From NCBI RefSeq assembly GCF_022846255.1, contig NZ_AP025682.1: a DNA stretch of 64,000 nt. One strand, 5' to 3'. Below are positions 5,134-24,105 of the stretch, piece after piece; the stretch's first letter is position 1; the number at the start of each line of letters is the position of its first letter. The notes beneath the pieces are model-generated. The model saw nothing but the letters and a program-made list of their open reading frames with translations. It was not told the origin of the DNA and searched no databases. This stretch comes from Escherichia coli. Lineage in GTDB: Bacteria; Pseudomonadota; Gammaproteobacteria; Enterobacterales; Enterobacteriaceae. The translations under genes were made by a program, and so were the position numbers.

Positions 5134-5430
5134 TTAGCTCCAGTGTAAATGTCTGGAGGCGTCCTGGTTTTGGTTAAGGATACGAATGACGATAATTTCC
5201 TCTGGTGATTGCAGGAAATAAATTACGTGGCGTTCAAAAGGAAGAACAAAAATACCTTCGCCTAATTCAGGTCTGGGTGTACCTATATTATTGTTACTCA
5301 GAATCTGGAGAACGTCTGAAAGATGTTCCACATATCTGTCGGCTTGTGGTTCGCCGAAATGGTGATAGCTGTAATACCAGATGCCTTCTAAATCCTCATT
5401 GGCTTTTGGCATGAGTTTTATAGTACGCAC
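5134..5430 (-). CDS. RelE/ParE-superfamily type II toxin (ParE-like)
   Basis: About 92-98 aa; ParE-like segments (EDLEGIWYY..FGEPQADRYVEHL...HVIYFLQSPEEIIVIRIL); directly downstream of, and nearly abutting, an RHH antitoxin ORF. Start is either GTG at 5430 or ATG at 5412. Confidence 0.75.
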   Translation of the reverse strand: MRTIKLMPKANEDLEGIWYYSYHHFGEPQADRYVEHLSDVLQILSNNNIGTPRPELGEGIFVLPFERHVIYFLQSPEEIIVIRILNQNQDASRHLHWS

Positions 5431-5431
5431 A

Positions 5432-5683
5432 TTATTTCCTTATCCCTGCTTTCACCTTCCGTAAAAACGCGTCCTTTTCCCACGGCTGAGCTTCACCACT
5501 ACTCAACCCTTCAGCGAGCATGTCACGTAACGCTTGCAGGCGAGACTCTGCTTGCTTTTCTCGAAGTAAGCGCAGCGACTCACGGATCACTTCGCTTTGG
5601 GTGCGATAGTCGCCGGATTCAATTAAGGACTCGATAAATTCACGCAACTCATCGCCGAGATCAACCGTCATCGTTCTGGCCAT
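5432..5683 (-). CDS. ParD-like (RHH/COG3609) type II antitoxin
   Basis: 83-aa product from ATG at 5683 (MARTMTVDLGDELREFIESLIESGDYRTQSEVIRESLRLLREKQ...); ribbon-helix-helix ParD signature; stop 1 nt before the toxin start. The supplied ORF extends to 5728. Confidence 0.75.
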   Translation of the reverse strand: MARTMTVDLGDELREFIESLIESGDYRTQSEVIRESLRLLREKQAESRLQALRDMLAEGLSSGEAQPWEKDAFLRKVKAGIRK

Positions 5684-5890
5684 TTTACGCCCGCCTGTAA
5701 GTAAAAATCTTACATCAGTGTATTTCATAAACCGGATAGCGTCACGAAAGTATTAGAAGATATTTTGGCATATGAACATGTTCAGGAAGATAAGTATGGG
5801 ATGGTAAACAAAGAAAGCACAACGAGTGCTTGTCAGTGCCCACTATTTTAATGGCGGAGGTTAATCTTAATTATCAATAACTAAGAGTTG

Positions 5891-5929
5891 TTTTGATATA
5901 AAGCCGGACGCCAACAACCCACGCCCGGC
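5891..5929 (-). terminator. putative intrinsic terminator downstream of yegP
   Basis: On the minus strand a GC-rich hairpin (gccgggcg...cgtccggc) followed by TTTATATCAAAA lies immediately 3' of the yegP stop. Confidence 0.5.
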
Positions 5930-5936
5930 ATCGTAA

Positions 5937-6269
5937 TTACGTATTGTCTTTTACCGTCTGACTTGTGCCATTGGCTTTAACGGAGGCAATTCCGGTTTCA
6001 CGAGATTGCGCGGTGGCGTACATCTGGCTGGAGCCGATAATTTGATGATTGGCGGCTTTCAGATTGAAATAGAATTTGCCGTTGCTTGCCGTTTTTTTCT
6101 CATAGCGTTCTTCTTGCGGGCTGTTGCTACGTACCGACGCGATGCCCTTTTCCGCAGAGGCTTTTGAGGTATACAGCTCGCTGGTGAGGATAGTCTCACC
6201 ATTGCCCGCTTTTAGCACAAACCGGAACTGATTATCACTGCTCTTACTGAGTTCAAACCAACCAGCCAT
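5937..6269 (-). CDS. yegP: UPF0339/DUF1508 tandem-repeat small protein YegP
   Basis: 110 aa from ATG at 6269 with a strong RBS (aaggagtcATG); MAGWFELSKSSDNQFRFVLKAGNGE... followed by an internal repeat (KFYFNLKAANHQIIGSSQMY). Confidence 0.85.
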   Translation of the reverse strand: MAGWFELSKSSDNQFRFVLKAGNGETILTSELYTSKASAEKGIASVRSNSPQEERYEKKTASNGKFYFNLKAANHQIIGSSQMYATAQSRETGIASVKANGTSQTVKDNT

Positions 6270-6448: not shown

Positions 6449-7171
6449 TTAAACGATGCGGCAGGCATCGGCTTCCCAGCGGTAACCGACGCCGTAAACG
6501 GCGCGGATAAATGACTGTTCGGCGTCGAGAGATTCCAGCTTGCGGCGCAGGTTTTTAATGTGGCTGTCGATGGTACGGTCAGTTACCACGCGGTAGTCGT
6601 CATAAAGATGGTTCAGCAACTGCTCGCGGGAGAACACTTTTCCTGGTTCATGAGAGAGCGTTTTCAGCAGACGAAATTCTGCAGGCGTCAGGTCAAGCAT
6701 TTTACCGCGCCATGAAGCCTGAAAACGACCTTCGTCGATAATCAACGGGCTTTCAGCATCCTGTTGCTGCAACTCACGCTGCGGTTTGCAACGGCGCAAA
6801 ATGGTTTTGACGCGCGCTACCACTTCCCGTGGGCTGTACGGTTTGCAGATGTAGTCATCTGCGCCAATCTCCAGCCCGAGCAGGCGGTCGATCTCTTCGA
6901 TTTTTGCTGTCACCATCACGATCGGAATGTCAGAAAAACGACGAATCTCCCGACACAACGTCAGGCCATCGGTGCCAGGGAGCATCAGATCCAACAGGAT
7001 CAGATCCGGTGGTGTCTGGCGCACATATGGCAGTACCTGATCGCCGTGGCTGATAAGCGTCGGCGCATAGCTCGCAGCACGCAGATAATCAATGAGTAAC
7101 TGTCCCAGCTTCGGTTCATCTTCCACGATCAAAATACGCGGTGTGTTTTCGTCGATTGGTAACTCGGTCAT
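6449..7171 (-). CDS. baeR: OmpR-family response regulator BaeR
   Basis: 240 aa; receiver domain ([11 protein letters not shown]...[11 protein letters not shown]) plus winged-helix output domain; overlaps the baeS stop. Confidence 0.95.
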
Positions 7172-8571
7172 ACTTCTCTCTGTAAATCCCGTTCCAGCGG
7201 TAACTCTACTGTAATGCTTACCCCGCCAAAAGGCGAATGGGCAGCAATAATGCGACCATTATGTGCTTCAACAATGTTCAGGCAAATCGCCAGCCCCAGC
7301 CCGGAACCGCCGCTGGCTCGGTTGCGGGAGCCTTCGGTGCGATAAAAACGTTCAAACAATTTTTGTAGCTGATCGTCACTGACGCCCGGCGCGCTGTCGG
7401 CAAAGGTCAGGCGCACCGTTTTGTCGTGCTGCTCGGCAGAGATTATCAGGCTACCGCCGCTGTCAGTGTAGCGCAGGCTGTTTTCCAGTAAGTTATTGAA
7501 TAACTGCATTAAACGGTCGCGATCGCCAAATACGGTAATACTGTCTGGCAGGGAAAATTGCAGTTTCAGGCCACGGCTGGCGAATCGTTCGCGAAATGCG
7601 CCGCCCGCCACTTCCAGCAGTGGGATCAAATCTACCGGTGCTTTTTGATAGGCGAGAGCGCCTTCATCAGACATCGACAACTGATGGAGATCGTCAACCA
7701 GTTTGGTCAGTGTACCGACCTCCGCCTGTAAAGACGCCACCGTCTCCGGCGTGAATTTACGCACGCCATCCTGAATGGCTTCCAGTTCACCGCGCAGCAC
7801 CGCTAATGGCGTACGCAGTTCGTGAGAAATATCGGCCATAAAATCGCGCCGCATTTGCTGGTTTTTCTCCAGCGTGCTGGCAAGCTGGTTGAAGTCTTGC
7901 GCCAGTTTGCCCAATTCATCTTCACTGGTGGGCGTCACGCGAGTAGTGAAATCGCCCGCTGCCAGTTTGTGTGTACCGTCCACCAGTCGTTTGACCGGAG
8001 CCAGCAAACCGCGCGCCAGTGGGAATGTCGCCAGCGCCGCTAACAAGGTAGATAAAGCGACAATCAGCCAACTGGTTTGCCTCTGTTGTCTGTCAAAATT
8101 GATATCGGTATTGCGGGTCAGTCGTTCAACAGGGGAGGCGATCACCGCACCCACTTCCGCCCCATTGACCATAATGGGCCGCCGTGTGCCGTCTGGTGGA
8201 ATCGGTGCTCGCGGGCCAACCAGCACTTTGTTGTTTTGATCAACCACCCAGAATTGCGTGCGCCAACCGTGTGGCGGCATACCGGGGCCGGGCTTATCTT
8301 CGTTGTTATCATGCTCCAGCGAACGTAGGATCTGAAATACAAAGCGATCGTTATTACGCAGGAAGCGCCAGTTCCCGTGCTGGGCGTACTGCTCACCAAG
8401 CGCATCGCCGAGCATTTGCAGCCGTTGTTCATTACCATGCTTGATGTAATCAATAAAGCCACGCTCAAAACTGATACGCACCGCCCAGTGCATACTGATC
8501 AGCAAGACAATGCAGGTGGCGAAAATCGCCAGAAACAGTTTGCCGGTAATACCGGGTCGCCAGAACTTCAT
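7168..8571 (-). CDS. baeS: envelope-stress sensor histidine kinase BaeS
   Basis: 467 aa; two transmembrane segments, HAMP, H-box ([11 protein letters not shown]) and HATPase domain. Confidence 0.95.
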
Positions 8572-9983
8572 TGCGCGCTCCTTTTTCGCCGCGAAATAGC
8601 GACATTTTGATGCGTATCGTTCGGCACTCTGGCAAAGATGAACGCCGGAAGGGCGATGATAAACGCCATGCTAAGCCAGGTGTACATAAAGACGGTTTGT
8701 GTGGTGCCGCTGTCGACGCTGACATGCTGTGAACCAAAAAGTCCCAGCAACAGCCCGGCGATAGTGACGCCGATACTCATCGACAATTGCATAATCATCG
8801 ACAGCAGGCTGTTTCCGCTGCTCGCCAGATTGTCCGGGAGATCTTTCAGCGTCAGGGTGTTCATGGAGGAGAAACGCGTTGAGTTGACCATTCCTTGTAA
8901 AAACAGGACGAACGGTAAAACGTAGTACCAGCCCAGCAGCGCGGTGGTCATAAACAACATGGTGACCAGCGACAGACCCAGCGTGGTCGCTACCAGTACC
9001 CGACGATAACCAAAGCGATTCACCACCTGTACCACAATTCGCTTCATTCCCATGCTGCCAAGCACCATCGGGATCATCATCAGTCCGGCATGAAAAGGCG
9101 AGAAACCGAGGCCAATTTGCAGGAAAACCGGCGTCATAAAGGGCAACATGCCGCTACCGATACGTCCGGCAAAGCTCCCCGCCAGGCCCAGTGAAAAGGT
9201 ACGAGTGCGGAACAGTTTCAGACTGAAAAGAGCGCGGTTGTTATTTCTGGCGTGCAGCAGATAAAGCACCAGTGCCACCACACCAACTGTGACCAGGCCA
9301 GCAATCGCCAGCGGCGATAAACCTGTACCTTTACTGCCGTCCAGCGCCAGGGTTAATACCGCCATGCCAACCGCCAGCAATAAAAAGCCGGAGAGATCAA
9401 AGCACCGCGTCTGCATGGTGTAGTTCGGCATTAACATCAGTGTGGCGATCGCGCCAATAATCCCCACCGGAATGTTGATCAAAAAGATCCAGTGCCACGA
9501 TGCGTACTCCACCAGCAGACCGCCGAGCGCCGGGCCAAGCAGCGGCCCGACCTGACCGGGCAGCGTGACAAAGGTCATCGCCGCCATATATTGCTCGCGC
9601 GGTACGATTTTCATCACCGTCAACCTACCGACCGGCACCATCATCGCGCCGCCAACGCCCTGTAACGCGCGTGCCAGCAACAGTTCGTTCAGCGTGCCGG
9701 AAAGCGCGCAAAACAGTGAACCGAGAGTAAACAGCACGATGGCGGTAAAGAAAATATTGCGCACGCCGACTTTGTCCGCCAGCCAGCCGCTGGCGGGCAG
9801 CATCACCGCCACGGTCAGTACATAAGAGACAATGACCATGTGCATATGCAACGGACTTTCCCCGAGGCTTTGCGCCATTGAGGGAAGCGCGGTGTTAACG
9901 ATGGTGGTGTCCAGCGACTGCATAAAGAAGCCGAAAGCCACAATCCACAATTGCCAGCGGGTGCTGTCGGGAAGATCTGTCAT
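8568..9983 (-). CDS. mdtD: MFS transporter MdtD
   Basis: 471 aa, 14-TM major facilitator profile; overlaps the baeS start by 4 nt. Confidence 0.93.
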
Positions 9984-12900
9984 TTACTCGGTTACCGCTT
10001 GTTTAGGTTTACGCGAAAAACGCAGCCGCAGACGGTCGAAAAAGAGATACACCACCGGCGTGGTATACAGCGTCAGAAGCTGGCTCATGACCAGACCGCC
10101 GACAATGGTGATCCCCAATGGTTGGCGCAACTCCGAGCCGTCACCGCCCGACAATACCAGCGGTAGCGCACCAAACAGCGCCGCCAGGGTAGTCATCATA
10201 ATCGGGCGAAAACGCAGCAGACAGGCCTGGAAAATAGCTTCCTGCGGCGTCAGGTTACCGTGCCGTTGGGCTTCAAGCGCAAAATCGACCATCATAATGG
10301 CGTTTTTCTTCACGATGCCGATTAATAACATGATCCCTATCAGCGCAATTAGGCTGAACGGGGCATTGAACAGCTCCAGCGCCAACAGCGCTCCGACGCC
10401 CGCCGAGGGTAGGGTGGAGAGAATCGTCAGTGGATGCACATAACTCTCGTAAAGGATACCCAGTACGATATATACCGTGGCGATGGCGGCGATAATCAGG
10501 ATCACCTGTGAGTTCATCGTCTCCTGGAACACTTGCGCTGTTCCGGCAAAACTGCCGCGCACCGTCGAAGGCACACCAAGCTGGGTCATTGCGCGATCGA
10601 TCGCCGCACTGGCGTCCGAGAGCGATTTCCCGGTCGGCAGGTTGAACGAAATGGTCGAGGCCGCCGATAATCCCTGATGATTCACCGACAGTGGAGCGTT
10701 CGCCGGTTGCCATTTAGCGAAATACGACAGCGGGATCGCTTTTCCTTCGTTATTGATAACGAACATTTTTTCCAGTGCACTGATGTCCTGGGTATAGCGC
10801 GGATCCACTTCCATCACCACTTTGTACTGGTTCATCGGCTGGTAAATGGTCGAGATTTGCCGCTGACCGAAGGCGTTATTTAACAGGCTGTTGGCGGCTT
10901 GCACGTCAATTCCCAATCGCGCCATAGTGTCGCGATCGTAAATAAGGTTCATCTCCGCGCCATTATCTTCCTGATCGGAGTTAACATCAGCCAGCTCTGG
11001 CAATGTCGCCAGTTTTTTGCGGATTTTCGGCTCCCATTCGCGCAGTGCCGCCAGGTCGTCGGATAACAACGTGTACTGGTAACTGGCGTTAGCCTGACGT
11101 CCGCCAACGCGAATATCCTGTACCGCCATCAGGAACAGATTCGCTCCCGGTTCTTTCGCCAGTTTTTTACGCAAGCGATCGATAATCTGTTGGGCCGTTT
11201 CGCTCCGCTCGCCGCGTGGTTTAAGGGTGATAAACATCATTCCACTGTTCACCCGTGAACCGCCGGTAAAGCCGGTGACATTATCCACCGCCGGATCGTC
11301 ACGGATAATTTTCATGAAGTCCTGCAACTTACCGCGCATCGCCTGAAACGAAATACTCTGGTCAGCCTGTATCCCGCCCATCAGTACGCCGGTATCCTGC
11401 TCCGGGAAGAAGGTTTTCGGGATCGAGATATACAGCCAGATATTCAGCGCAATGGTGCCAAGCAGCACCACGCCCACCAGACGGGTATGATTGAGCACCC
11501 ATTTCAGCGACTTGCCATAGCCTTGTTGCAGGGCTACCAACATGCGACCAAAGCCACGCAGTCGCTTTTGCTCGCGCGGCTTGCTGGCTTTTAGCATCCA
11601 GCCGCACATCATCGGCGTTAACGTCAGGGAAACCAGCAGCGAAATACCAATGGCGACAGAAAGCGTCACGGCAAACTCGCGTAACAGGCGACCCGGCAAT
11701 CCGCCCATCAACAGCAGCGGCAGGAACACCGCCACCAGTGACAGACTCATCGACAGCACTGTAAAGCCGACTTCACGAGTACCTTGCAGCGCGGCCTGTA
11801 GCGGTTTCATCCCCGCCTCCAGATGACGGGCAATGTTTTCCAGCACCACGATGGCGTCATCCACCACAAAGCCAGTGGCGATGGTGAGCGCCATTAACGA
11901 AAGATTATTGAGACTGAAACCACACAGGTACATCGCCGCAAACGTACCAATCAGCGAAACCGGCACCGCAACGGCGGGAATAATGGTGGCGCGACCCGAA
12001 CGCAGGAACAAAAACACCACCAGAATCACCAGTGCAACTGAGATTACCAGCGTCTGCTCAACCTCTTCCAGCGACGCGCGGATAGTAGGGGAGCGATCCT
12101 GGGCAATTTGCAGATCAATTGCTGCCGGGATGGTGGATTGTAATTCCGGCAGACGGGCGCGGATGCTGTCTACCGTCTGGATAATATTGGCTTCCGGCAG
12201 CTTGCGGATCATCAGCAAAATAGCCGGTTTGGCGTTGGTCATCCCGGCGTTACGTACATCTTGTACAGAGTCGGTCACCGTCGCCACATCGCCCAGACGA
12301 ACCGCGCCGCCGTTGTTGTAATGAATAATCAGCGGCTGATATTCAGCGGCGGTTTTCAGTTCATCGTTAGTCTGGATCTGCCAGCGGTGAGTACCATCTT
12401 CCAGCGCCCCCTGCGGTTTACGCACGTTGGCATTGCTGATGGCGGTGCGTACGTCGTCCAGCGAGACGCCCTGATTAAACAGCGCCTGCGGATTCAGCCC
12501 GACGCGTACGGCGGGCAGCGAGCTGCCGCCAACATCGACATCACCGACACCGTCGATTTGCGAAATCGTCGGAGCCAGCTGTGTCGAGGCGAAATCGTAC
12601 AGTTCACCCTGCGAATAAGTATCGGATGTCAGCGTGAGGATCATAATTGGCGCATCCGACGGGTTCGCTTTGCGATAGGTCGGACGGCTGGGCATCCCGC
12701 TGGGTAGCAGACTTTGCGCGGCGTTGATCGCCGCCTGCACATCGCGCGCTGCGCCGTTGATATCCCGGTCAAAATCAAACTGCAAAATAATGCGCGTGCT
12801 GCCGAGCGAACTGCTGGAGGTCATTTCGCTGACTCCGGCAATGCGCCCAAGTGAGCGCTCCAGCGGCGTGGCAACGGAAGACGCCATTGTTTCTGGTGAC

Positions 12901-13061: not shown

Positions 13062-16000
13062 TTACGCCTCCTCTTCATGACGGGCAAAGCGGCTTTTGGT
13101 CCACAATGCCAGACGGTCGAACAGCAGATAAATCACCGGCGTGGTAAACAGCGTCAGCACCTGGCTGACAATCAGACCGCCGACCATGCCGATACCTAAC
13201 GGACGACGCAGTTCCGCGCCGACCCCGGTACTCAACATCAGCGGCAGCGCACCAAGCAGAGCCGCCAGAGTGGTCATCAGGATCGGACGAAAACGCAACA
13301 GACAAGCCTGGTAAATAGCTTCGCGCGGCGACATGCCTTGCTCGCGCTCAGCAGCCAGCGCGAAGTCGATCATCATGATGGCGTTCTTCTTCACGATACC
13401 GATCAGCAAAATAATGCCGATAATGGCAATCACATCCAGTTCGCTACCGGCAATCATTAACGCCAGCAGCGCGCCGACCCCTGCGGTGGGTAGCGTCGAG
13501 AGAATGGTGATCGGGTGAATAAAGCTCTCGTACAGAATGCCGAGCACGATATACATCGCCACCACCGCCGCGACAATCAGCCAGACAGTGCTGCCCAGCG
13601 CTGACTGGAAGGCGAGGGTGCTGCCCTGGAACTGCGTGGTGATATCCACCGGCAGATTCAGCGTCTTCTCTGTGTCCATAATCGCTTGCACCGCATCGCC
13701 CAGCGAATAGTTATCCGGCACGTTAAAGGAGATAGTCGTTACCGGGAACTGATCCAGATGGTTGATGGAAAGCGGCGCAAAACGCTGCTCAATTTTGGCA
13801 ATTGAGCTTAACGGCACCACGCCACCGTCGCTGCTGGTCAGGCGAATGGTATCCAGCGCCGCGAGGCCTGGGGTATTTTCGGTGTTGTGTTCCAGTACCA
13901 CGCGATACTGGTTAGCCTGAGTATAAATAGTGGAAATCAGTCGCTGACCAAACGCGTTGTACAGGGCGTTATCGACATCCGCCATGCTGATCCCTAGGCG
14001 GCTGGCGCTGTCCCTGTCGACATTGACATACGCCACCAGCCCTTTGTCCTGCCAGTCGCTGGAGACATCAGAAAGCTGTGGCAGCTGCTGGAGTTTTTCC
14101 ATCAACTGTGGCACCCAGGTACTGAGCGCATCCAGTGACGTGGCCTGCAAGGTAAACTGGTACTGGGTGCGGCTGACCTGAGTATCAATAGTCAGGTCCT
14201 GCGTTGGTTGCAGGAAGAGATCGACGCCCGGCACTTTATCTACCGCCGTTTGCAGACGGGCGATGACTTTTTGCACCCGGTCATCTCGTTCATCCAGTGG
14301 TTTGAGATTGATCTGTAAACGCGCACTGTTCAGCGACGGGTTAGTGCCATCAACGCCAACAAATGAGGTCAAACTTTGCACTGCCGGATCCTGCAAAATC
14401 ACGTCCGCGACCTGGCGTTGCCGCTGGGCCATATTCGCAAAGGAGCTGGATTGCGGTGCCTGCAAAGTGCCCTGAATAATGCCGTTGTCCTGCACCGGGA
14501 AGAAACCTTTCGGAATGAACACCCACAGCAGCACGCTAAGCAGCAGCGTGCTGAGCGCCACGCTTAAGGTCAGCCACGGATGATTCAGCACTTTCGCCAG
14601 CCCACGACCATAGGCGGCGATTATCCTGTCGAACATTTTCTCCGAGGCACGGGAGAAGCGGTTCTGTTTACGCAGCGACTCCTGGCTGAGCATCCGCGCG
14701 CACATCATCGGTGTCAGGGTCAGCGACACCACCGCCGAGATCAAAATCGCGACTGCCAGGGTAATAGCAAATTCGCGGAACAGTCGCCCGACGATATCGC
14801 CCATAAACAGCAGGGGGATCAACACCGCAATCAGCGAGAAGGTCAGCGAGATAATGGTAAAGCCGATTTCACCCGCGCCTTTGAGCGCCGCCGCCAACGG
14901 TTTTTCGCCTTTTTCGATATAGCGGGAAATATTTTCGATCACCACGATGGCGTCATCGACCACGAATCCGGTGGCGATAGTTAACGCCATCAGCGTCAGG
15001 TTATTGATTGAAAAATCGAGAAACACCATGACCGCAAAGGTGCCAATTAACGACAGCGGTACAGCAACACCGGGAATGATGGTCGCCGGAATATTGCGCA
15101 AAAACAGGTAGATAATCATGACTACCAGCGCGATAGCCATCATCAGCTCAAACTGGGTATCGTCGACCGATGCGCGGATATTGGTGGTACGGTCAGAAAG
15201 TACCGTCACCTTCACCGATTTCGGCAGACTCTCGGTGAGCTGTGGTAGCATCTGCCGGATGCTGTCGGCGGTGGAGATAATGTTAGCACCGGGCTGGCGC
15301 TGGACATTCATCACAATGGCCTGTTCTTTGTTCGCCCATGCGCCGAGCCAGCTGTTTTCTGCTCCTTGCTCTACAGTAGCGACATCGCCCAGACGAATTG
15401 GTGCGCCGTTCTGGTAGGCGATGATTAGCTGGCGATACTCTTCGGCGGATTGCATCTGGTCGTTAGCGGAAAGCGTGACCGCGCGGGAAGGGCCGTCGAG
15501 GCTACCTTTTGCCGAGTTAACGTTAGCGCCGGTAATAGCGGTGCGTACGGTTTCGCTGGTCAGGCCGAGGGCGGCAATCGCCTGAGCGTTAAGTTTGACG
15601 CGAACAGCCGGACGCTGGCCGCCGGAAAGTGTGACCAGCCCTACGCCGGAAATCTGCGAGATTTTCTGCGCGACGCGGGTTTCCACCATATCTTCCACCT
15701 GGGTCATCGGCATGGCGGTTGAGGTGACGGCGAGCGTCATGATCGGTGGATCTGCCGGGTTCACTTTGCTGTAAACCGGCGGGTTAGGCAGATCGCTCGG
15801 TAGCAGGTTAGTGGCAGCGTTAATCGCGGCCTGCACTTCCTGCTCGGCGACATCCAGCGGCAATGTTAGCTGGAACTGTAAAGTGATAACTGACGCACCG
15901 CCGGAACTTTGCGACGACATCTGTTTCAGGCCAGACATCTGCCCGAACTGGCGTTCGAGCGGCGCGGTAACGGCAGAGGTCATGACATCCGGGCTTGCAC

Positions 16001-16184
16001 CTGGATAAAGCGTGACCACCTGAATGGTTGGATAGTCCACTTCCGGCAGCGCCGAAACGGGCAGGGCGCGATAACCGATAATCCCGGCGAGTAAGATCGC
16101 CACCATCAGCAGCGTGGTGGCGACAGGACGCATAATAAACAGGCGCGACGGGCCGCCTGTGCTGCTCGGGGGTAACACCTGCAT
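13062..16184 (-). CDS. mdtB: RND multidrug efflux pump subunit MdtB
   Basis: 1040 aa AcrB-like RND transporter, paralogous to the adjacent MdtC. Confidence 0.95.
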
Positions 16185-17431
16185 CAGGAGCGCGCTCCTT
16201 TTTTCGCGTATTCGCGGCTGGTGGCTTTATCTTCCGGGGTAGTGGCGCTCTGGGCTTCCACGACTTCCACTTTCGCCCCTTCGGTCAGGCGATCAATGCC
16301 GTCCGTCACTACGCGGTCGCCCGCAGAAATACCTGCACGGATCACCACTTTCTGACTGTCCTGAATGCCCGGTGTCACCAGATGTTTGCTGACTTTGTTT
16401 TCGCTATTCAGTACCCAGACAAAATGGCCTTCGTTGCCCATTTGCAGTGCGGCGGTGGGGATCACCACGGCGTTTTGTTCGGTATCGACTAACATGCGAG
16501 CGTTAACAAACTGATTAGGGAAAAGCGCATCATCCTGATTATTAAAGCGAGCTTTCACTTTAATCGTACCGGTAGTGGCATCGATTTGGTTATCGAGACT
16601 TAACAGCGTGCCTTCACTTAACTTCTTCGAGTTGGTGCGATCCCAGGCTTCTACCACCAGCGGTTTTCCGGCTTTTTGCGCCTGTACAACGGTGGCGATA
16701 TCGCTTTCCGGCAGAGTAAAGACCAGATCGATAGGATGCGTCTGGGTGATCACCACAATCCCGGTGGTGTCGCCACTGGAGATTTGGTTACCAACATCAA
16801 CCTGCTTGAGACCAACGCGACCATCAACTGGTGCGGTGATACGGCTCCAGTCGAGTTGCAGCTGTGCGCTGGCGACGCTTGCTTCATCAGCCTTAATGGT
16901 ACCTTCGGTTTCACTGACCAGCGCTTGTTGGGCATCCAGTTCCTGACGAGATACGAGATTGGTTTTTGCCAGTTGTTGATAACGCGCCAGGTCACGGCGG
17001 GCGTTGGCGAGCGTGGCTTTATCTTTTGCCAGTTGGCCCTGGGCTTGTGCTAATGCAACTTTGAACTGGCTTGGGTCAATTTCTGCCAGTAAATCGCCTG
17101 CTTTGACCTGCTGGCCTTCCTGGAAATGTAACGCCATCAGTTGACCGTCCACGCGGCTGCGCACCGTAACAGTATTAGCGGCGGTAATGGTGCCAAGCCC
17201 GGTGAGGTAACGCGGAACAGCCTGTTCTACTGCGGTCGCCGCCTGAACCGGAGCTAATGGGCCGGCACGCATACCACGGCGACCACCCGCTGGCGATTGC
17301 TGCGCTTGTTTCGTCGCCCCAGGGGCTGCACTCTGGGAGTCATTGCGGCCTTGCCAGAACCAGAATGCGGCGATGGCGGCGATAACCACCACGATTACGA
17401 TTACCCAACGGGATTTATAACTGCCTTTCAT
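16184..17431 (-). CDS. mdtA: RND efflux membrane fusion (periplasmic adaptor) protein MdtA
   Basis: 415 aa from ATG at 17431 ([16 protein letters not shown]...). The supplied ORF start at 17578 adds 49 residues upstream that I reject. Confidence 0.9.
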
Positions 17432-17484
17432 CGTTAAGAGTTTCTCTTCCTGAAACGTTTCGCGGAATGATACTAGTGTAGCCA

Positions 17485-17502
17485 GCCAATAAGGGAGAAA
17501 AA
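17485..17502 (-). promoter_or_regulatory. putative BaeR box upstream of mdtA (TTTTTCTCCCTTATTGGC on minus strand)
   Basis: Close match to the recalled BaeR consensus TTTTTCTCCATDATTGGC, about 55-70 bp upstream of the mdtA start. Confidence 0.45.
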
Positions 17503-17669
17503 TGGAGGAATTATGAAACACTGTCGGGAATCGTCTGAATGACGGGCACATTTGCGAGCACGCATCCAGTAATAACACATGAAACTATTTTATCTACGCG
17601 TTAGCGATAGACTGCTTGCATGGCGAAAGGAGATAAGCCGACGATTTCAGCGGGACGCTGAAACGGAAA

Positions 17670-17815
17670 AGCCCCTCCCGAGGAAGGGGCCTTAAATAAG
17701 GAAAGGGTCATGATGAAGTGGATCATCATCGTGGTGCTCTTAGTGATTAGCTACCCAGCATACTAAGACTACCAGGGCGGGGGAAACCCCGCTCTACCCT
17801 CACTCCTGAAAGTAT
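17670..17815 (-). ncRNA. sibA: SibA-like antisense sRNA (type I antitoxin); ends approximate
   Basis: The minus strand carries an intrinsic terminator (aaggcccc-ttcctcggga-ggggctt + TTTTCCGTTT) at about 17675-17704, antisense to and fully overlapping the ibs ORF. The 5' end is not determinable from sequence. Confidence 0.5.
17710..17766 (+). CDS. ibsA: Ibs-family hydrophobic toxic peptide, 18 aa (MMKWIIIVVLLVISYPAY)
   Basis: Translated directly from the sequence; RBS aaggaaagg upstream; characteristic Ibs peptide. Confidence 0.7.
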   Translation: MMKWIIIVVLLVISYPAY

Positions 17816-17994
17816 GCCTTCACGGTCCAATTGTCAATCCGCAGACTTTGCAGTCTGCGATCCTGCCAGCAAATATTCTTTGCGAGTCGTTACGCAATAA
17901 TCACACTTGAAACTATTTTATCCGCAAGTCAGCGATAGACTGCATACAGGGCGAAAGGAGGTAAGCCGAAGATTTCAGCGGGACGCTGAAACGG

Positions 17995-18140
17995 GAAAGC
18001 CCCTCCCGAGGAAGGGGCCTTAAATAAGGAAAGGGTCATGATGAAGCTACTCATCATCGTGGTGCTCTTAGTCATTAGCTGGCCAGCTTACTAAGACTAC
18101 CAGGGCGGGGGAAACCCCGCTCTACCCTCACTCCTGAAAT
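17995..18140 (-). ncRNA. sibB: SibB-like antisense sRNA (type I antitoxin); ends approximate
   Basis: Second copy of the same terminator hairpin on the minus strand at about 17997-18022, antisense to the second ibs ORF. Confidence 0.5.
18038..18094 (+). CDS. ibsB: Ibs-family hydrophobic toxic peptide, 18 aa (MMKLLIIVVLLVISWPAY)
   Basis: Translated directly from the sequence; second repeat unit. Confidence 0.7.
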   Translation: MMKLLIIVVLLVISWPAY

Positions 18141-18311
18141 TATGTCACTCCGCCCTTAGTGTCAATCGACGGCTCTCCGTTCTTGCGAGGCGAATAGCAA
18201 AATTTTCTGCGCCGCCGGGCCTAATTCTGAAAGTTTCTTCGTTTGCTCTTATTTCATTATTGCAATCGGTATGATACCGGACCTCAATAATTCTCTAAGA
18301 AAGGATTTCTT

Positions 18312-18971
18312 ATGAGCGAACAAATCACGTTTGCCACCAGCGATTTTGCCAGTAACCCGGAACCACGTTGCCCCTGCATTTTGCTGCTGGATGTTTCTGG
18401 CTCGATGAGCGGCAGACCCATTAATGAACTTAACGCCGGATTGGTTACCTTTCGCGATGAGCTGCTTGCCGACCCGCTGGCCTTAAAAAGAGTGGAACTC
18501 GGTATTGTGACGTTCGGCCCAGTGCATGTGGAACAACCCTTTACCAGCGCCGCTAATTTTTTCCCGCCCATCCTGTTTGCCCATGGGGATACACCAATGG
18601 GCGCCGCCATTACCAAAGCCCTGAATATGGTTGAGGAGCGCAAACGTGAGTATCGCGCCAATGGTATTTCCTATTATCGTCCGTGGATTTTCCTGATTAC
18701 CGATGGCGCACCAACCGATGAGTGGCAGGCTGCTGCCAACAAGGTGTTTCAGGGGGAAGAAGATAAGAAGTTTGCCTTCTTTTCCATCGGTGTTCAGGGG
18801 GCGGATATGAAGACGCTGGCCCAAATCAGCGTTCGTCAGCCTTTGCCATTGCAGGGATTACAATTCCGTGAACTGTTTAGCTGGTTATCCAGTTCGCTGC
18901 GTTCGGTTTCCCGCTCCACGCCGGGAACGGAAGTTGTGCTGGAAGCGCCAAAAGGCTGGACGTCAGTGTGA
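18312..18971 (+). CDS. yegL: von Willebrand factor A (TerY-like) domain protein YegL
   Basis: 219 aa; MIDAS motif DVSGSMSG in a VWA fold; first gene of a three-gene operon. Confidence 0.9.
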
Positions 18972-19729
18972 GCTGGCGTCTGGTCTATGCATCAACCGTT
19001 GGAACGTCGCACATCAGCGCGGACTTGCCTTGCCAGGATGCCTGCCAGATGCAGGTTGCCTGGTTAAATGACCAGCAGCCATTATTGTCGGTATTTGTCG
19101 CTGATGGCGCAGGCAGTGTCTCGCAGGGTGGCGAAGGTGCGATGCTCGCCGTCAATGAAGCGATGGCTTATATGTCGCAAAAAGTGCAGGGCGGGGAATT
19201 GGGGCTTAATGATGTCCTCGCAACGGACATTGTGCTGACCATTCGTCAGCGACTTTTTGCCGAGGCGGAAGCCAAAGAATTAGCGGTTCGCGATTTTGCC
19301 TGCACGTTTTTGGGATTGATTTCATCAGCTAATGGCACCTTGATTATGCAGATTGGCGATGGCGGCGTGGTGGTAGATTTGGGTCACGGTTTGCAACTGC
19401 CGCTCACGCCGATGGTGGGGGAATATGCCAATATGACGCACTTCATTACCGATGACGATGCTGTTTCCAGACTGGAAACTTACACCAGTACTGAGCGTGC
19501 GCATAAAGTTGCAGCATTTACGGATGGTATTCAGCGACTGGCGTTAAATATGCTGGATAATTCTCCGCATGTGCCTTTCTTTACCCCGTTTTTCAATGGA
19601 CTGGCGTCAGCAACGCAGGAACAACTCGATTTATTACCTGAATTGTTAAAGCAGTTTTTGTCCAGCCCGACGGTAAACGAGCGTACCGATGATGATAAAA
19701 CGTTGGCACTGGCGCTGTGGTTACCATGA
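18968..19729 (+). CDS. yegK: PP2C-family Ser/Thr protein phosphatase YegK (PphC)
   Basis: 253 aa; GTG start overlaps the yegL stop (GTGA); PP2C-like motifs (FVADGAGS..., IGDGG). Confidence 0.88.
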
Positions 19730-21666
19730 AACCCACTTTATATACTGCTACTGGTGAGTGCGTTACGCCTGGCCGTGAACTGGGCAAAGGCGGTGAAGGT
19801 GCGGTTTATGATATCGAGGAGTTTGCCGATAGCGTCGCCAAGATTTATCACACGCCGCCACCCGCCTTAAAACAGGACAAACTTGCCTTTATGGCTGCGA
19901 CAGCTGACGCGCAGTTGTTGAATTATGTCGCCTGGCCGCAGGCAACGCTTCACGGTGGACGAGGCGGAAAAGTTATCGGTTTTATGATGCCAAAAGTTTC
20001 TGGTAAAGAACCGATTCATATGATCTATAGCCCGGCACATCGTCGCCAGAGTTACCCTCATTGTGCGTGGGATTTTCTACTCTATGTTGCGCGCAATATT
20101 GCTTCATCTTTTGCTACTGTTCATGAGCACGGGCACGTCGTGGGTGACGTAAACCAGAACAGCTTTATGGTAGGTCGCGACAGCAAAGTGGTGTTGATTG
20201 ATAGCGACTCCTTTCAGATTAATGCCAATGGTACACTGCATTTATGCGAAGTCGGCGTGTCGCATTTTACGCCGCCAGAGCTGCAAACCATGCCATCATT
20301 TGTCGGCTTTGAACGCACAGAAAATCACGATAATTTTGGCCTTGCGTTGCTGATATTTCACATCTTGTTTGGTGGGCGGCATCCTTATTCCGGTGTACCG
20401 CTTATCTCTGATGCGGGTAATGCGCTGGAGACGGATATTGCCCATTTCCGTTATGCCTACGCGTCAGATAATCAGCGACGTGGTTTAAAACCGCCGCCAC
20501 GATCGATTCCGCTGTCGATGTTACCGGGCGATGTTGAAGCCATGTTTCAGCAGGCATTCACGGAAAGTGGCGTGGCAACCGGGCGTCCGACGGCAAAAGC
20601 GTGGGTAGCGGCACTTGATTTACTACGCCAACAGTTAAAGAAATGTACCGTTTCGGCAATGCATGTTTACCCCGCTCATTTGACTGACTGCCCGTGGTGT
20701 GCGCTGGATAATCAAGGCGTTATCTATTTTATTGATCTCGGCGAAGAGGTCATTACCACCGGCGGTGATTTTGTGCTGGCGAGAGTCTGGGCGATGGTGA
20801 TGGCGTCAGTAGCACCGCCAGCATTGCAATTACCATTACCCGATCATTTCCAACCGACTGGCAGGCCGCTTCCTTTAGGCCTGTTAAGGCGTGAATACAT
20901 CATTCTGATTGAGATCGCACTGTCAGCGTTATCGCTGCTGCTTTGCGGCCTTCAGACAGAACCACGTTATATTATTTTGGTTCCTGTGCTGTCGGCTATC
21001 TGGATTATTGGCAGCCTGACAAGCAAAGCGTACAAAGCAGAAATCCAGCAACGCCGTGAGGCGTTTAATCGTGCGAAAATGGACTATGACCATTTAGTCA
21101 GCCAGATCCAACAGTTGGGCGGGCTGGAAGGTTTTATCGCCAAACGGACGATGCTCGAAAAAATGAAGGACGAAATTCTTGGGTTACCGGAAGAAGAAAA
21201 GCGCGATCTGGCAGCACTTCAGGACACCGCAAGGGAACGGCAGAAGCAGAAGTTTCTGGAGGGATTTTTTATTGATGTTGCCTCTATTCCCGGCGTTGGC
21301 CCTGCGCGTAAAGCGGCGTTACGGTCCTTTGGTATTGAAACAGCAGCGGATGTTACCCGACGGAGCGTTAAGCAAGTGAAAGGTTTTGGTGATCATCTGA
21401 CCCAGGCGGTTATCGACTGGAAAGCGAGCTGTGAACGCCGTTTTTTGTTCAGGCCGAACGAAGCGGTAACGCCTGCAGACAGACAAGCGGTAATGGCAAA
21501 AATGGCCGCCAAACGACATCGGCTGGAATCGGCGCTGACTGTCGGTGCGACAGAGTTGCAGCGATTCCGCCTTCATGCTCCAGCACGGACCATGCCGTTG
21601 ATGGAACCGCTACGTCAGGCGGCAGAAAAACTGGCTCAGGCGCAGGCTGATTTAAGCCGTTGCTGA
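19726..21666 (+). CDS. yegI: eukaryotic-like Ser/Thr protein kinase YegI with C-terminal transmembrane, coiled-coil and helix-hairpin-helix regions
   Basis: ATG at 19726 overlaps the yegK stop (ATGA). Gly-rich loop LGKGGEGAVY, a VAIK-like lysine (VAKIY) and a catalytic-loop-like VGDVNQNS; predicted TM helices (IILIEIALSALSLLLCGL, ILVPVLSAIWIIGSL) and an HhH-like IPGVGPARKAALRSFGI. Confidence 0.88.
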   Translation: MKPTLYTATGECVTPGRELGKGGEGAVYDIEEFADSVAKIYHTPPPALKQDKLAFMAATADAQLLNYVAWPQATLHGGRGGKVIGFMMPKVSGKEPIHMIYSPAHRRQSYPHCAWDFLLYVARNIASSFATVHEHGHVVGDVNQNSFMVGRDSKVVLIDSDSFQINANGTLHLCEVGVSHFTPPELQTMPSFVGFERTENHDNFGLALLIFHILFGGRHPYSGVPLISDAGNALETDIAHFRYAYASDNQRRGLKPPPRSIPLSMLPGDVEAMFQQAFTESGVATGRPTAKAWVAALDLLRQQLKKCTVSAMHVYPAHLTDCPWCALDNQGVIYFIDLGEEVITTGGDFVLARVWAMVMASVAPPALQLPLPDHFQPTGRPLPLGLLRREYIILIEIALSALSLLLCGLQTEPRYIILVPVLSAIWIIGSLTSKAYKAEIQQRREAFNRAKMDYDHLVSQIQQLGGLEGFIAKRTMLEKMKDEILGLPEEEKRDLAALQDTARERQKQKFLEGFFIDVASIPGVGPARKAALRSFGIETAADVTRRSVKQVKGFGDHLTQAVIDWKASCERRFLFRPNEAVTPADRQAVMAKMAAKRHRLESALTVGATELQRFRLHAPARTMPLMEPLRQAAEKLAQAQADLSRC

Positions 21667-21678
21667 GCCAGTTTTCAA

Positions 21679-23031
21679 TTAACGAAACACCACTTCCGCC
21701 CAGCGTGCCAGCCCGGCGGTGACGGAGCCAAAGTCATCGCCACCTGCAATCGGAATGCCCGGCAACTGTTCTGTCAGCGCTTTTTTAATCAGCGGTGAAC
21801 GGGCGCTACCGCCGGTCAGATAGATAACATCCGGTTTTTCCTGGGCGTTATCCAGCGCCAGTTGCACCTGTTCCAGAATCCGCGCCAGTGGCTGGTTGAG
21901 GGCGCTTTCCAGCCCTTGCTGGCTAATCAGCGTAGCCAGTTCATCGCTGATAAACGGCAGTGAGGCGCGGGTTTCCGCTACGCTTGAAAGCGCAATTTTG
22001 CTCTCTTCTGCGCTACGTACCAGGCGATAGCTTAAACGCTGACGCCAGACTTTCTGTAACAGGGCCACTTTTTCCGGTTCGCGGGCATCGCGTACCAGAT
22101 CGTTAAGCAGACGACCGTTGGCACTACTGTAGAAATCACTTTGCGCAGGTACGTCGTTGATGGCAACCGCATTCCACCACGGCAGAATCGGCAGGGCGAT
22201 GCCTTTTTCGGTTTCGCCACCCATGCCCAGTAACGGCATCAGGTTCTTAAACGCCAGTGCGATATCCAGATCGTTACCACCAATACGGCAACCACTGTGA
22301 CCCAGCAGGCTGGCTTCACGATCGAGACGCGAACGCCACTGCGGCCCCATCAGCAGCAATGAACAGTCAGTCGTACCACCGCCGATATCCACCACCAGCA
22401 CCCGTTTTTCTTCCTGCAAGGTGGCTTCGTAATCCAGCCCAGCCGCCACCGGCTCGTACTGGAATACCACGTCCTTAAACCCGGCACGCTTCGCTGCGCG
22501 CTCCAGAATCCCTTGTGCCTGGGCGTTTGCTTCATCGCCGCCCAGCCCCTGGAAGTTGATCGGGCGACCAATCACCGCCTGGGTAATTGCCTCCGGCAAT
22601 TGCGCCTGCGCCTGCTGGCGAATGTGCAACATCATTGCGCAGACCAGATCCTCAAACAGCGCTACCTGCTGCGGTTTTAAGCCGCTGGCACCGAGGAACG
22701 ATTTTGGTGATTTCACAAACCACACTTCTTCTGGATCATCAATGTACTGTGCCAGTGAGGAAAGACCGAACTGCACGCTTTTCGCCGTAACATCGATATC
22801 TTCTTCGCGGTTATAACGAATCGCCCGACGCAGCAGCGCCTGCGTTTCATCGTCGTCTGCCGGAACATCATGATAGCGGTACAGCCATTCGCTTACCGCT
22901 TCACGCGTTGGCGCGCAAAGCATTGAAGGCAGCAGCGTGCTGTCGTTTTCCATTTTCAGTAATTGCGGCTTACCGTCGCGCATGACCGCCACTGAACAGT
23001 TTGCTGTACCGTAATCAAAACCAATAAACAC
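21679..23031 (-). CDS. yegD: Hsp70/actin-fold ATPase family protein YegD
   Basis: 450 aa from GTG at 23031 (MFIGFDYGTANCSVAVM...), DnaK-like phosphate-binding motifs; convergent with yegI. The supplied ORF adds 21 N-terminal residues that I reject. Confidence 0.88.
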   Translation of the reverse strand: MFIGFDYGTANCSVAVMRDGKPQLLKMENDSTLLPSMLCAPTREAVSEWLYRYHDVPADDDETQALLRRAIRYNREEDIDVTAKSVQFGLSSLAQYIDDPEEVWFVKSPKSFLGASGLKPQQVALFEDLVCAMMLHIRQQAQAQLPEAITQAVIGRPINFQGLGGDEANAQAQGILERAAKRAGFKDVVFQYEPVAAGLDYEATLQEEKRVLVVDIGGGTTDCSLLLMGPQWRSRLDREASLLGHSGCRIGGNDLDIALAFKNLMPLLGMGGETEKGIALPILPWWNAVAINDVPAQSDFYSSANGRLLNDLVRDAREPEKVALLQKVWRQRLSYRLVRSAEESKIALSSVAETRASLPFISDELATLISQQGLESALNQPLARILEQVQLALDNAQEKPDVIYLTGGSARSPLIKKALTEQLPGIPIAGGDDFGSVTAGLARWAEVVFR

Positions 23032-23104
23032 GAAATAATCCCCATGCCGGTGAAGAAGGGGCGAGACTTTAGCGAAATGTTGCCGTCGCGACAACCGGAA
23101 TATG

Positions 23105-23117
23105 AAAGCAAAGCGTA
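23105..23117 (+). promoter_or_regulatory. putative Ada box in the alkA promoter (AAAGCAAAGCGTA)
   Basis: Resembles the Ada recognition sequence (AAAGCGCA-type) about 50 bp upstream of the alkA start; alkA is a known Ada regulon member. Confidence 0.35.
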
Positions 23118-23164
23118 GCGTCTGAATAACGTTTATGCTGAAAGCGGATTAAAAAGGAGATGCG

Positions 23165-24013
23165 ATGTATACCCTGAACTGGCAGCCGCCATATGACTGG
23201 TCGTGGATGTTGGGATTTCTCGCCGCCCGTGCGGTGAGCGGTGTGGAAACGGTTGCGGACGATTATTATGCCCGTAGTCTGGCGATGGGCGAATATCGCG
23301 GCGTGGTGACTGCTATTCCGGATATAGCCAGCCATACTCTGCACATAAATTTAAGTGCAGGTTTAGAACCTGTTGCCGCTGAGTGTCTGGCGAAAATGAG
23401 CCGCCTGTTTGATTTGCAATGTAACCCGCAGATTGTTAACGGTGCGTTGGGCAAGTTAGGCGCGGCGCGGCCCGGATTGCGTTTACCCGGCAGTGTTGAT
23501 GCTTTTGAGCAGGGCGTGCGGGCGATTTTAGGCCAACTGGTGAGCGTGGCGATGGCGGCAAAATTGACCGCCAGAGTGGCACAGCTTTATGGCGAAAGGC
23601 TGGATGATTTTCCGGATTATGTCTGCTTCCCCACGCCTCAGCGGCTGGCAGCAGCAGATCCGCAGGCATTAAAAGCGTTAGGTATGCCGTTGAAACGGGC
23701 AGAGGCGCTGATTCATCTGGCAAATGCGGCGCTGGAGGGCACCTTACCAATGACAATACCGGGCGATGTGGAGCAGGCGATGAAAACGCTGCAAACTTTT
23801 CCGGGTATCGGGCGCTGGACGGCGAATTATTTCGCCTTGCGCGGCTGGCAGGCGAAAGATGTTTTCCTGCCGGATGATTATCTGATTAAACAGCGATTTC
23901 CGGGAATGACACCGGCACAAATCCGCCGTTATGCCGAACGCTGGAAGCCCTTGCGTTCTTATGCGCTGTTGCATATCTGGTATACGGAAGGCTGGCAACC
24001 AGACGAAGCATGA
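23165..24013 (+). CDS. alkA: 3-methyladenine DNA glycosylase II
   Basis: 282 aa, MYTLNWQPPYDWSWMLGFLAARAV...; HhH-GPD glycosylase; matches AlkA. Confidence 0.95.
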   Translation: MYTLNWQPPYDWSWMLGFLAARAVSGVETVADDYYARSLAMGEYRGVVTAIPDIASHTLHINLSAGLEPVAAECLAKMSRLFDLQCNPQIVNGALGKLGAARPGLRLPGSVDAFEQGVRAILGQLVSVAMAAKLTARVAQLYGERLDDFPDYVCFPTPQRLAAADPQALKALGMPLKRAEALIHLANAALEGTLPMTIPGDVEQAMKTLQTFPGIGRWTANYFALRGWQAKDVFLPDDYLIKQRFPGMTPAQIRRYAERWKPLRSYALLHIWYTEGWQPDEA

Positions 24014-24021
24014 CGTTGGTC

Positions 24022-24105
24022 GCCGGATGCGGTGCGAGCGCCTTATCCGGCCTGGGGAATGAGCGATTTGTAGGCATGATAAGACGCGTTAGCGTCGCAT
24101 CAGGC
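24022..24105. repeat. BIME: two REP palindromes in opposite orientation
   Basis: gccggatgcggtgcgagcgccttatccggc and gtaggcatgataagacgcgttagcgtcgcatcaggc between the convergent alkA and dgcE. Confidence 0.6.

Follow-up and report, generated by a model that had tools for sequence, protein, structure and literature searches.

The yegL-pphC-yegI operon of Escherichia coli, a kinase-phosphatase unit with the layout of a TerY-P triad

INTRODUCTION

What does the three-gene unit yegL-pphC-yegI (yegLKI) do for Escherichia coli? These genes encode a VWA protein (YegL), a PP2C-like phosphatase (PphC, also called YegK) and a Ser/Thr kinase (YegI), and we examined them in a stretch of 64,000 nucleotides of E. 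coli DNA (contig NZ_AP025682.1 of assembly GCF_022846255.1), hereafter the window, where they occupy positions 18312-21666. The answer at which we arrive is that yegLKI is a TerY-P triad in layout and not a member of the validated anti-phage TerY-P family as currently modelled. With modest confidence, we take it to be a Ser/Thr phospho-switch that is complete in its three genes, conforms to the TerY-P-triad type and acts in conflict or stress. An earlier note, made from the letters of the window, had described the genes as a translationally coupled operon matching the TerY-P triad, with a function that is unknown in E. coli. This last point holds for the physiology, since the substrate and the physiological role of PphC and YegI are stated as unknown (10.1101/303594, 10.1101/819920), and the enzymes themselves have been characterized biochemically.

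The observation and most of its annotation are already known, as the genes are annotated and characterized: RefSeq lists yegL as a vWA domain-containing protein, pphC as the protein-serine/threonine phosphatase PphC and yegI as the protein kinase YegI. PphC has been shown to be a PP2C-like phosphatase that depends on Mn and removes the phosphates from YegI after its autophosphorylation (10.1101/303594; J Bacteriol 2018), and a D46N catalytic mutant of it has been made (10.1101/303594). YegI is an active Ser/Thr kinase despite lacking conserved motifs and autophosphorylates on the activation-loop serines S153, S160 and S162 (10.1101/819920; FEBS Lett 2020); it prefers Mn over Mg, and it was shown experimentally to be a two-pass inner-membrane protein with both termini in the cytoplasm (10.1101/819920). 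In a genome-wide overproduction screen, YegL and YegI were each strong “DNA-damage-up” proteins (10.1101/354589), and yegI was reported to be mutated recurrently in the long-term evolution experiment (LTEE) (10.1101/303594). For this LTEE link, the sources are what 10.1101/303594 states and a typographic match to “yegl”; a direct literature search for it found nothing. The proteins of the window are 98% (YegL), 94% (PphC) and 96% (YegI) identical to those of a K-12-like strain, and they are products of the same genes as the published E. coli proteins, with identical VGD and DSD motifs, K39, D141 and S162.

The TerY-P triad is a concept of Anantharaman, Iyer and Aravind (2012), in which a TerY-like VWA protein, a PP2C phosphatase and a Ser/Thr kinase are hypothesized to form a metal-sensing phosphorylation switch, as summarized in PMC11090510 and PMC4978471. 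The classical TerY-P kinase is described in PMC11090510 as fused C-terminally to a zinc ribbon. A TerY-P-like system with an OB-fold kinase protects against T7-like phages (Gao et al. 2020; PMC7699616, PMC11090510).

RESULTS

Three chained genes encode a VWA protein, a phosphatase and a kinase

Read from the sequence, the locus consists of three plus-strand open reading frames (ORFs) chained within 18312-21666: yegL (18312..18971, 219 residues), pphC (18968..19729, 253 residues, with a GTG start) and yegI (19726..21666, 646 residues counted from the ATG). A program-made list of ORFs begins yegI 9 nucleotides earlier, at a GTG. The boundaries of all three genes match the RefSeq annotation in E. 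coli, and the two stop/start overlaps that the earlier note had reported are exact. These are a GTGA between yegL and pphC (18968..18971, plus strand), for which RefSeq annotates the same four-nucleotide overlap in E. coli, and an ATGA between pphC and yegI (19726..19729, plus strand), which was explicitly reported for REL606 and O157:H7 (10.1101/819920) and whose place is taken by an insertion carrying yegJ in K-12-type strains. A good Shine-Dalgarno sequence precedes yegL alone among the three genes (AAGGA at 18301..18305 on the plus strand, 6 nucleotides upstream of the ATG), which fits a coupled translation of pphC and yegI. Similar overlaps were found far from E. coli. The VWA/PP2C four-nucleotide overlap recurred in six of seven distant homologous cassettes, whose DNA is far diverged and whose proteins are 34-85% identical, and the PP2C/kinase overlap in two of the seven, the other five having gaps of 7-15 nucleotides. 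This recurrence in far-diverged cassettes argues that the chaining of the genes is conserved and not due to chance. As to the translational coupling that had been proposed, the overlaps are real and represent the majority state in E. coli, but the arrangement is not species-wide, since yegJ splits pphC from yegI in ~36% of the genomes. Upstream of yegL (18166-18311), we found no sigma-70 consensus promoter, and promoter and terminator scans yielded nothing that exceeded the shuffle expectation. Published work found no condition that gives robust expression of yegI and pphC (10.1101/303594, 10.1101/819920), and a 2026 paper in RNA Biology, in which YegJ was studied, confirmed the weak expression.

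YegL matched the Pfam models VWA (E = 1.1e-9) and VWA_2 (E = 6.7e-7), in line with the MIDAS-type VWA motif that had been noticed in it. Its MIDAS is complete: The DxSxS motif (D27-V-S29-G-S31, 18390..18404, plus strand) is joined by T94 and D131, and all five residues are invariant across eight homologs. In tblastn comparisons, the “TerY-C metal binding”/VWA proteins (TerY/TerX) of plasmid-borne ter operons aligned to YegL at 29-36% identity (E from 1e-11 to 3e-17) over 55-75% of its length, with the MIDAS conserved. This similarity justifies calling YegL TerY-like. YegL differs from these proteins in having no TerY-C metal-binding extension and no linkage to terZABCDE, and in being paired with a kinase and a phosphatase. 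YegL is also the slowest-evolving member of the cassette, with 59-85% identity compared to 34-64% for PphC and 36-63% for YegI. Near its C terminus lies a Ser-rich segment of 12 residues (18885..18920, plus strand), whose serines S193, S195, S200 and S202 do not vary among the cassettes of distant bacteria, and we regard this tail, from its conservation, as a candidate phospho-acceptor. For PphC, the PP2C signatures seen by eye correspond to a match to PF13672 (PP2C_2) at E = 8.1e-52, in which residues 11-220 aligned to positions 1-204 of the 209 in the model.

YegI is a divergent kinase with a membrane hairpin and a predicted DNA-binding domain

The assignment of YegI proved less direct. Pfam Pkinase (PF00069) did not match YegI at E ≤ 10, and the sole Pfam match of the protein was HHH_5 at residues 515-551. 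Thus, of the profile hidden Markov model (HMM) placements that the earlier note expected, those of YegL among VWA proteins and of PphC among PP2C phosphatases were obtained, and that of YegI failed for the protein itself, yet succeeded for 27 of 32 more distant relatives (~31-42% identical to one another), which do match Pkinase. Structure prediction gave a clear result: An AlphaFold (AF2) model built on 66 homologs (pLDDT 93.7, pTM 0.80) has a protein-kinase fold and matched more than 1900 kinase chains of the PDB at E ≤ 1e-3 in Foldseek, with probability 1.00 for PknB, Aurora, BRAF and others and a TM-score of 0.71 to PknB. We take YegI to be a kinase because of these fold matches, the Pkinase matches of its relatives and the published biochemistry.

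The kinase domain (residues 1-300; 19726..20625, plus strand) contains the glycine loop and the lysine that had been recognized from the sequence. The loop G20-x-G22-x-x-G25 and K39 are invariant or nearly so in the 66 homologs, and D141 and N143 (in the motif VGDVNQNS) as well as D159, D161 and S162 (in DSDS) are invariant. The canonical HRD and DFG motifs are absent and replaced family-wide by VGD and DSD, deviations that were already noted in 10.1101/819920. Around the catalytic loop, YegI gave weak matches to the kinase domains of lanthionine synthetases and to the defence kinases PD-T4-6 (Stk2-like) and MkoA of the Mokosh system; the HMM similarity to the latter two amounted to 14-19 bits, far below family level.

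Directly after the kinase domain follows a predicted CHCC zinc knuckle (C307, H313, C322, C325; 20644..20700, plus strand), with all four residues invariant in the 66 and in the 32 homologs. The region was modelled as a beta-hairpin followed by a helix, and neither HMM nor structural searches gave a match to a zinc ribbon; from the invariant residues, the knuckle would be expected to bind zinc. The chain then continues with a transmembrane hairpin placed at hydropathy maxima (residues 391-409 and 415-433; 20896..21024, plus strand), long cytoplasmic helices of coiled-coil-like character (residues 434-500; 21025..21225, plus strand; helices 418-465, 467-485 and 487-500 by DSSP of the AF2 model), a (HhH)2 domain (residues 502-575; 21229..21450, plus strand), and a long C-terminal helix in the AF2 model (residues 583-645; 21472..21660, plus strand). 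In the (HhH)2 domain, two helix-hairpin-helix motifs form a five-helix domain, which is predicted to bind nucleic acid. Relatives with the same kinase and knuckle core carry SH3 or TPR as the C-terminal module instead, and this swapping suggests that the C terminus of YegI is the targeting or sensing part.

A comparison with the well-studied pairs PknB/PstP and PrkC/PrpC puts these features in perspective. Shared with them are the kinase fold and a partner PP2C phosphatase that dephosphorylates the kinase once it has autophosphorylated. YegI differs from PknB and PrkC in having no extracellular PASTA or other sensor, in keeping both termini in the cytoplasm, in the VGD and DSD motifs, and in having a VWA protein as an obligatory partner gene.

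The operon has the layout of a TerY-P triad and falls outside the validated defence family

The architecture that defines a TerY-P triad is present in yegLKI: a TerY-like MIDAS VWA protein, an adjacent PP2C phosphatase and an adjacent Ser/Thr kinase, in one operon. The invariant CHCC right after the kinase domain of YegI, a predicted zinc-binding element, may correspond to the zinc ribbon of the triads, and an association with restriction and DNA-processing genes is common to both. YegI has in addition the transmembrane hairpin, the coiled coil and the (HhH)2 domain, and yegLKI lies outside CoCoNuT/McrBC and ter operons, at a locus that is fixed in the core genome of Escherichia.

As a control for the validated anti-phage system, we used the homolog in E. 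coli G3/10 (SG205), which was found via the supplement of 10.1101/2022.08.27.505566 and BLAST. The PADLOC models TerY, PP2C and STK_OB scored 573, 358 and 878 bits on this control, compared to 12.6 bits (E = 0.017) for YegL and no match for either PphC or YegI. BLASTP between the window and G3/10 was marginal at most, with E = 0.009 for the VWA proteins, E = 0.025 for the kinases and a null result for the phosphatases; the kinase match centres on the common GDxxxxN / LIDxD catalytic region. A direct TerY-P assignment of the window proteins was rejected, as PADLOC and NCBIfam scans gave no match. The NCBIfam scan is uninformative here, since no NCBIfam TerY-P model matched even the G3/10 control. 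RefSeq calls the G3/10 locus (7001-10260) “TerY-P anti-phage system ...”, and the NCBIfam release gave no model for its VWA protein or its phosphatase, so that this label must stem from other evidence.

The two systems nevertheless share the three-gene order and the domain logic, and in both kinases the catalytic loop is a non-canonical GDxxxxN and DFG is replaced by LIDxD. They differ in most other respects. The G3/10 phosphatase fails PF13672, unlike PphC; the G3/10 kinase has weak DUF6991/OB signals C-terminally and is not membrane-anchored, whereas YegI ends in the hairpin, the coiled coil and (HhH)2; and the G3/10 genes lie 7-13 nucleotides apart, whereas those of yegLKI overlap. Of 5426 complete E. 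coli genomes, 4 carry the G3/10-type system, which lies next to a type I restriction-modification (RM) system, and 5402 carry yegLKI. Hence, the match to the TerY-P triad stands for the three-gene architecture and the TerY-like YegL, and it does not extend to the PADLOC models of the validated anti-phage system.

The same cassette occurs in distant bacteria and on plasmids

YegI belongs to a large family: Among 50%-identity clusters, 9675 representatives reach E ≤ 1e-3 and 3245 reach E ≤ 1e-30. Most of the best 150 representatives are full-length (~640-660 residues). The closest relatives outside Escherichia, at 58-63% identity, came from Klebsiella spallanzanii, K. aerogenes, Piscinibacter and Chromobacterium; among the best matches, there was no homolog at the 64-90% identity expected of Salmonella and Citrobacter orthologs. 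The same cassette of 219, 253 and 646 residues recurs in distant bacteria and on plasmids, at 35-63% kinase identity. When its conservation across genomes was checked, as the earlier note had proposed, all 10 contexts kept the VWA, PP2C and kinase genes together amid unrelated flanks, and these contexts span Proteobacteria, Firmicute-like contigs and plasmids. An eleventh contig ends inside the upstream ORF and was not counted among them.

The distant cassettes often adjoin restriction, Abi, BREX or Wadjet-type genes. In Piscinibacter, the flanks comprise NYN/OST-HTH, a SLFN-type helicase, MazG-like, ScoMcrA, HIT, SNase, BrxR and JetB; in Klebsiella, BrnA, GmrSD, SymE and a type I RM system, with the same immediate neighbours at a second Klebsiella place, the tenth context; and in Chromobacterium, AbiH, a KAP NTPase and Tn7-like TniQ/TniB. 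Three metagenomic contigs had a PLD/DrmC-like nuclease, Mrr_cat, and GmrSD, HsdR, Abi_C and HsdS, respectively. The remaining three contexts are plasmids. On pQBR103, plasmid backbone and DNA-processing genes surround the triad; the Methylocystis plasmid has HipA and conjugation genes next to it; and on the Cupriavidus plasmid, H-NS-family, J-domain and Tn3 transposase genes form the flanks. In total, 83 plasmid records contained YegI homologs, among them megaplasmids of Agrobacterium, Rhizobium and Pseudomonas, and homologs were also present on conjugative plasmids. On the Pseudomonas megaplasmid pQBR103 (17543-19765), a separate gene ~6.6 kb downstream of the triad encodes a second such protein, a “helix-hairpin-helix domain-containing protein” of 740 residues, near genes for HU, RNase HII and UmuD/Y-polymerase.

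Phage genomes gave a different picture, with one weak YegI-like match in 50,697 phage records. The three proteins are matched over nearly their whole length, at 498-1526 bits, by three PHROGs (phrog_28389, phrog_37072 and phrog_37888), which probably represent genes of host chromosomes that were included in predicted prophages. The possibility that the cassette is phage-borne was rejected on these two grounds.

A fixed core locus in E. coli that yegJ splits in a third of the genomes

In E. coli, yegLKI is chromosomal, single-copy and located at one fixed site in the 5402 genomes that carry it. Compared with the K-12-like strain, the ratios of nonsynonymous to synonymous substitution rates (dN/dS) were 0.044 for yegL, 0.17 for pphC and 0.10 for yegI, next to 0.02 and 0.08 for the flanking mdtA and yegD, and the ratios of the cassette genes against Klebsiella were similar (overall 0.04-0.17). 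These values indicate purifying selection and argue against decay.

The gene yegJ was found in 1934 of the 5426 genomes (36%), K-12-type strains included, and some copies are further disrupted by IS1. In the K-12-like strain, an intergenic segment of 725 nucleotides with 37.7% GC (its positions 5419-6143) replaces positions 19721-19769 of the window; it carries yegJ on the opposite strand, encoding a 153-residue protein with a signal-peptide-like N terminus. With the segment, PphC ends in ...ALWAE where the window has ...ALWLP, and YegI differs over its first ~15 residues. A difference between B and K strains at the locus has been described (10.1101/303594). The window shares the compact layout of the B-strain or REL606 type, with its ATGA overlap and without the yegJ insertion of K-12, and this compact three-gene operon is what the majority of E. 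coli and all distant relatives have, unlike K-12.

The yeg allele of the window has no identical counterpart in any complete RefSeq E. coli genome: Its best match reached 97.8-98.2% DNA identity (over 13062-24100), with B2-type strains such as NU14 and APEC O18. The locus thus comes from a lineage or mosaic without an exact representative among these genomes. The neighbouring mdtB reaches 99.6% in other strains, and the dS against the K-12-like strain was 0.12-0.23 for all five genes tested.

The neighbours named in the earlier note were found as described. Between mdtA and yegL, two full-length Sib antitoxin RNAs form a tandem repeat on the minus strand (17695-17837 and 18023-18165; Rfam RF00113, 137 and 141 bits), with Ibs toxin ORFs opposite them that fall below the 20-residue minimum of the ORF list. 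The Hsp70-like yegD (21679-23028; NF008673, 805 bits) is convergent, lying 12 nucleotides past the stop codon of yegI. The ORF of mdtA (16184-17578, minus strand) runs to a GTG at 17578 and would give 464 residues, compared to 415 for MdtA in RefSeq; the extra 49 codons are probably untranslated. We rejected yegD as a member of the system, as it is absent from all 10 homologous contexts. On the Cupriavidus oxalaticus plasmid (7865-10251), a gene for a J-domain protein and an ORF of 311 residues are convergent to the kinase gene, 14 nucleotides past its stop. The ORF of 311 residues showed no similarity to YegD, there were no PADLOC matches at that place, and no other context has a chaperone gene in this position; the echo of the yegD arrangement is probably a coincidence.

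DISCUSSION

A proposed phospho-switch for conflict or stress

How might three such proteins work together? In the conflict or stress switch that we favour, PphC would act as a brake that keeps YegI dephosphorylated and off. The metal site in the MIDAS of YegL would bind a trigger or a partner, and YegL could serve as a sensor, as an adaptor that activates YegI, or, via its invariant Ser-rich tail, as a substrate of YegI. The (HhH)2 domain, as predicted from the structural model, may position the membrane-tethered kinase at DNA, for example, at DNA that enters the cell or is damaged. As soon as PphC is out-competed, YegI would phosphorylate proteins of the host or the invader, leading to growth arrest or to a block of the phage or plasmid. 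The stop/start overlaps would set the stoichiometry of the three proteins. Such a role agrees with the genomic neighbourhoods, the carriage on plasmids, the horizontal distribution, the DNA-damage phenotype upon overexpression and the fitness cost seen in the LTEE. It also draws support from the purifying selection on the genes, from the similarity of YegL to TerY and from the anti-phage activity demonstrated for a TerY-P-type triad; in particular, the DNA-damage-up effect and the yegI mutations of the LTEE suit a module that is costly and normally silent.

A number of observations weigh against this reading. Besides the failure of the PADLOC models and the marginal BLASTP similarity to G3/10 described above, the expression of yegLKI is barely detectable under laboratory conditions according to published data. 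Its near-universal core status is atypical for defence systems. The evidence from the neighbourhoods is anecdotal, coming from about six informative chromosomal contexts without background statistics, and the plasmid contexts are backbone or DNA-processing regions and not classical defence islands. In the literature searched, we found no report of a phage, plasmid or stress phenotype of yegLKI, nor of any link to phages, and K-12, which carries the yegJ-split version, is a phage-sensitive host in assays of other defence systems.

A stronger form of the idea is that cassettes of the yegLKI type constitute a distinct, widespread anti-phage or anti-plasmid family (~3200 50%-identity clusters) that escapes the defence finders in present use. 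We consider this conceivable and put it forward tentatively. In such a family, the membrane-tethered kinase would sense invading or damaged DNA via the (HhH)2 domain and the MIDAS protein and respond with a phosphorylation-dependent arrest, and Escherichia would stand out in that one copy has become fixed in its core genome as a silent immune module.

Housekeeping, metal sensing or decay

The main rival explanation, given the core-genome status and the absence of a defence phenotype, is that YegI, PphC and YegL are a signalling unit domesticated in Escherichia that reversibly phosphorylates host proteins on Ser/Thr, for example, in stationary phase, at the envelope or in DNA repair, and takes no part in conflicts with phages or plasmids. 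The single fixed site in 5402 of 5426 genomes, dN/dS values comparable to those of the flanking housekeeping genes and the lack of PADLOC defence matches for YegL and PphC are all as expected of such a unit, and the benefit that yegI mutations bring in the LTEE points to an effect on physiology where no phage is present. The distribution across relatives speaks otherwise. The best matches of YegI contained none of the 64-90% identical homologs that Salmonella and Citrobacter should supply, and the Klebsiella copy sits at an unrelated locus by GmrSD and a type I RM system, which indicates that the cassette moves horizontally and is not an ancient housekeeping set. Moreover, 36% of E. coli genomes tolerate an insertion that disrupts the operon, and laboratory strains do not need the genes, which are all but silent in them. 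We regard a housekeeping role as unlikely.

That silence would also be expected if the cassette were a cryptic relic, horizontally acquired, transcriptionally silent, without a current function and heading for loss in E. coli. Undetectable expression under standard conditions, the missing consensus sigma-70 promoter upstream of yegL, the splitting of the operon by yegJ in 1934 of 5426 genomes with IS1 insertions seen, and the benefit of yegI mutations in the LTEE agree with it, but a decaying cassette would hardly be kept intact in >99% of genomes, show dN/dS of 0.04-0.17 both within E. coli and against Klebsiella, retain all catalytic, MIDAS and zinc-knuckle residues, and yield purified proteins that are enzymatically active, as published. 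We hold this explanation to be very improbable. Improbable, too, is a sensor of metal or tellurite-type stress, in which the MIDAS of YegL would sense a metal or an oxyanion and switch the kinase/phosphatase pair for a response to chemical stress. YegL is indeed closer to the TerY of ter operons (E down to 3e-17) than to the TerY of the validated defence system, YegI prefers Mn over Mg, and a metal-sensing phosphorylation switch is the published hypothesis for the triad, as summarized in PMC11090510. Yet no ter genes, terZABCDE or others, lie near the cassette in the window or in any of the 10 contexts; the genes around it are defence genes that target nucleic acids or plasmid genes for DNA processing and not genes for metal resistance, and the kinase ends in what the model predicts to be a DNA-binding-type (HhH)2 domain.

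Implications

YegI and PphC are among the very few pairs of a Hanks kinase and a PP2C phosphatase in E. coli, and the comparative data provide experimental handles on them: the MIDAS and the Ser-rich tail of YegL, the CHCC knuckle and the (HhH)2 domain of YegI, and the compact versus yegJ-split alleles. Without answering the question of their physiological function, these data sharpen it into testable predictions. If the reading as a defence or DNA-sensing system is true, almost every E. coli would carry an unrecognized and normally silent immune or stress module that PADLOC does not flag, which would bear on phage-susceptibility assays, on the yegI mutations of the LTEE and on the DNA-damage phenotype upon overexpression.

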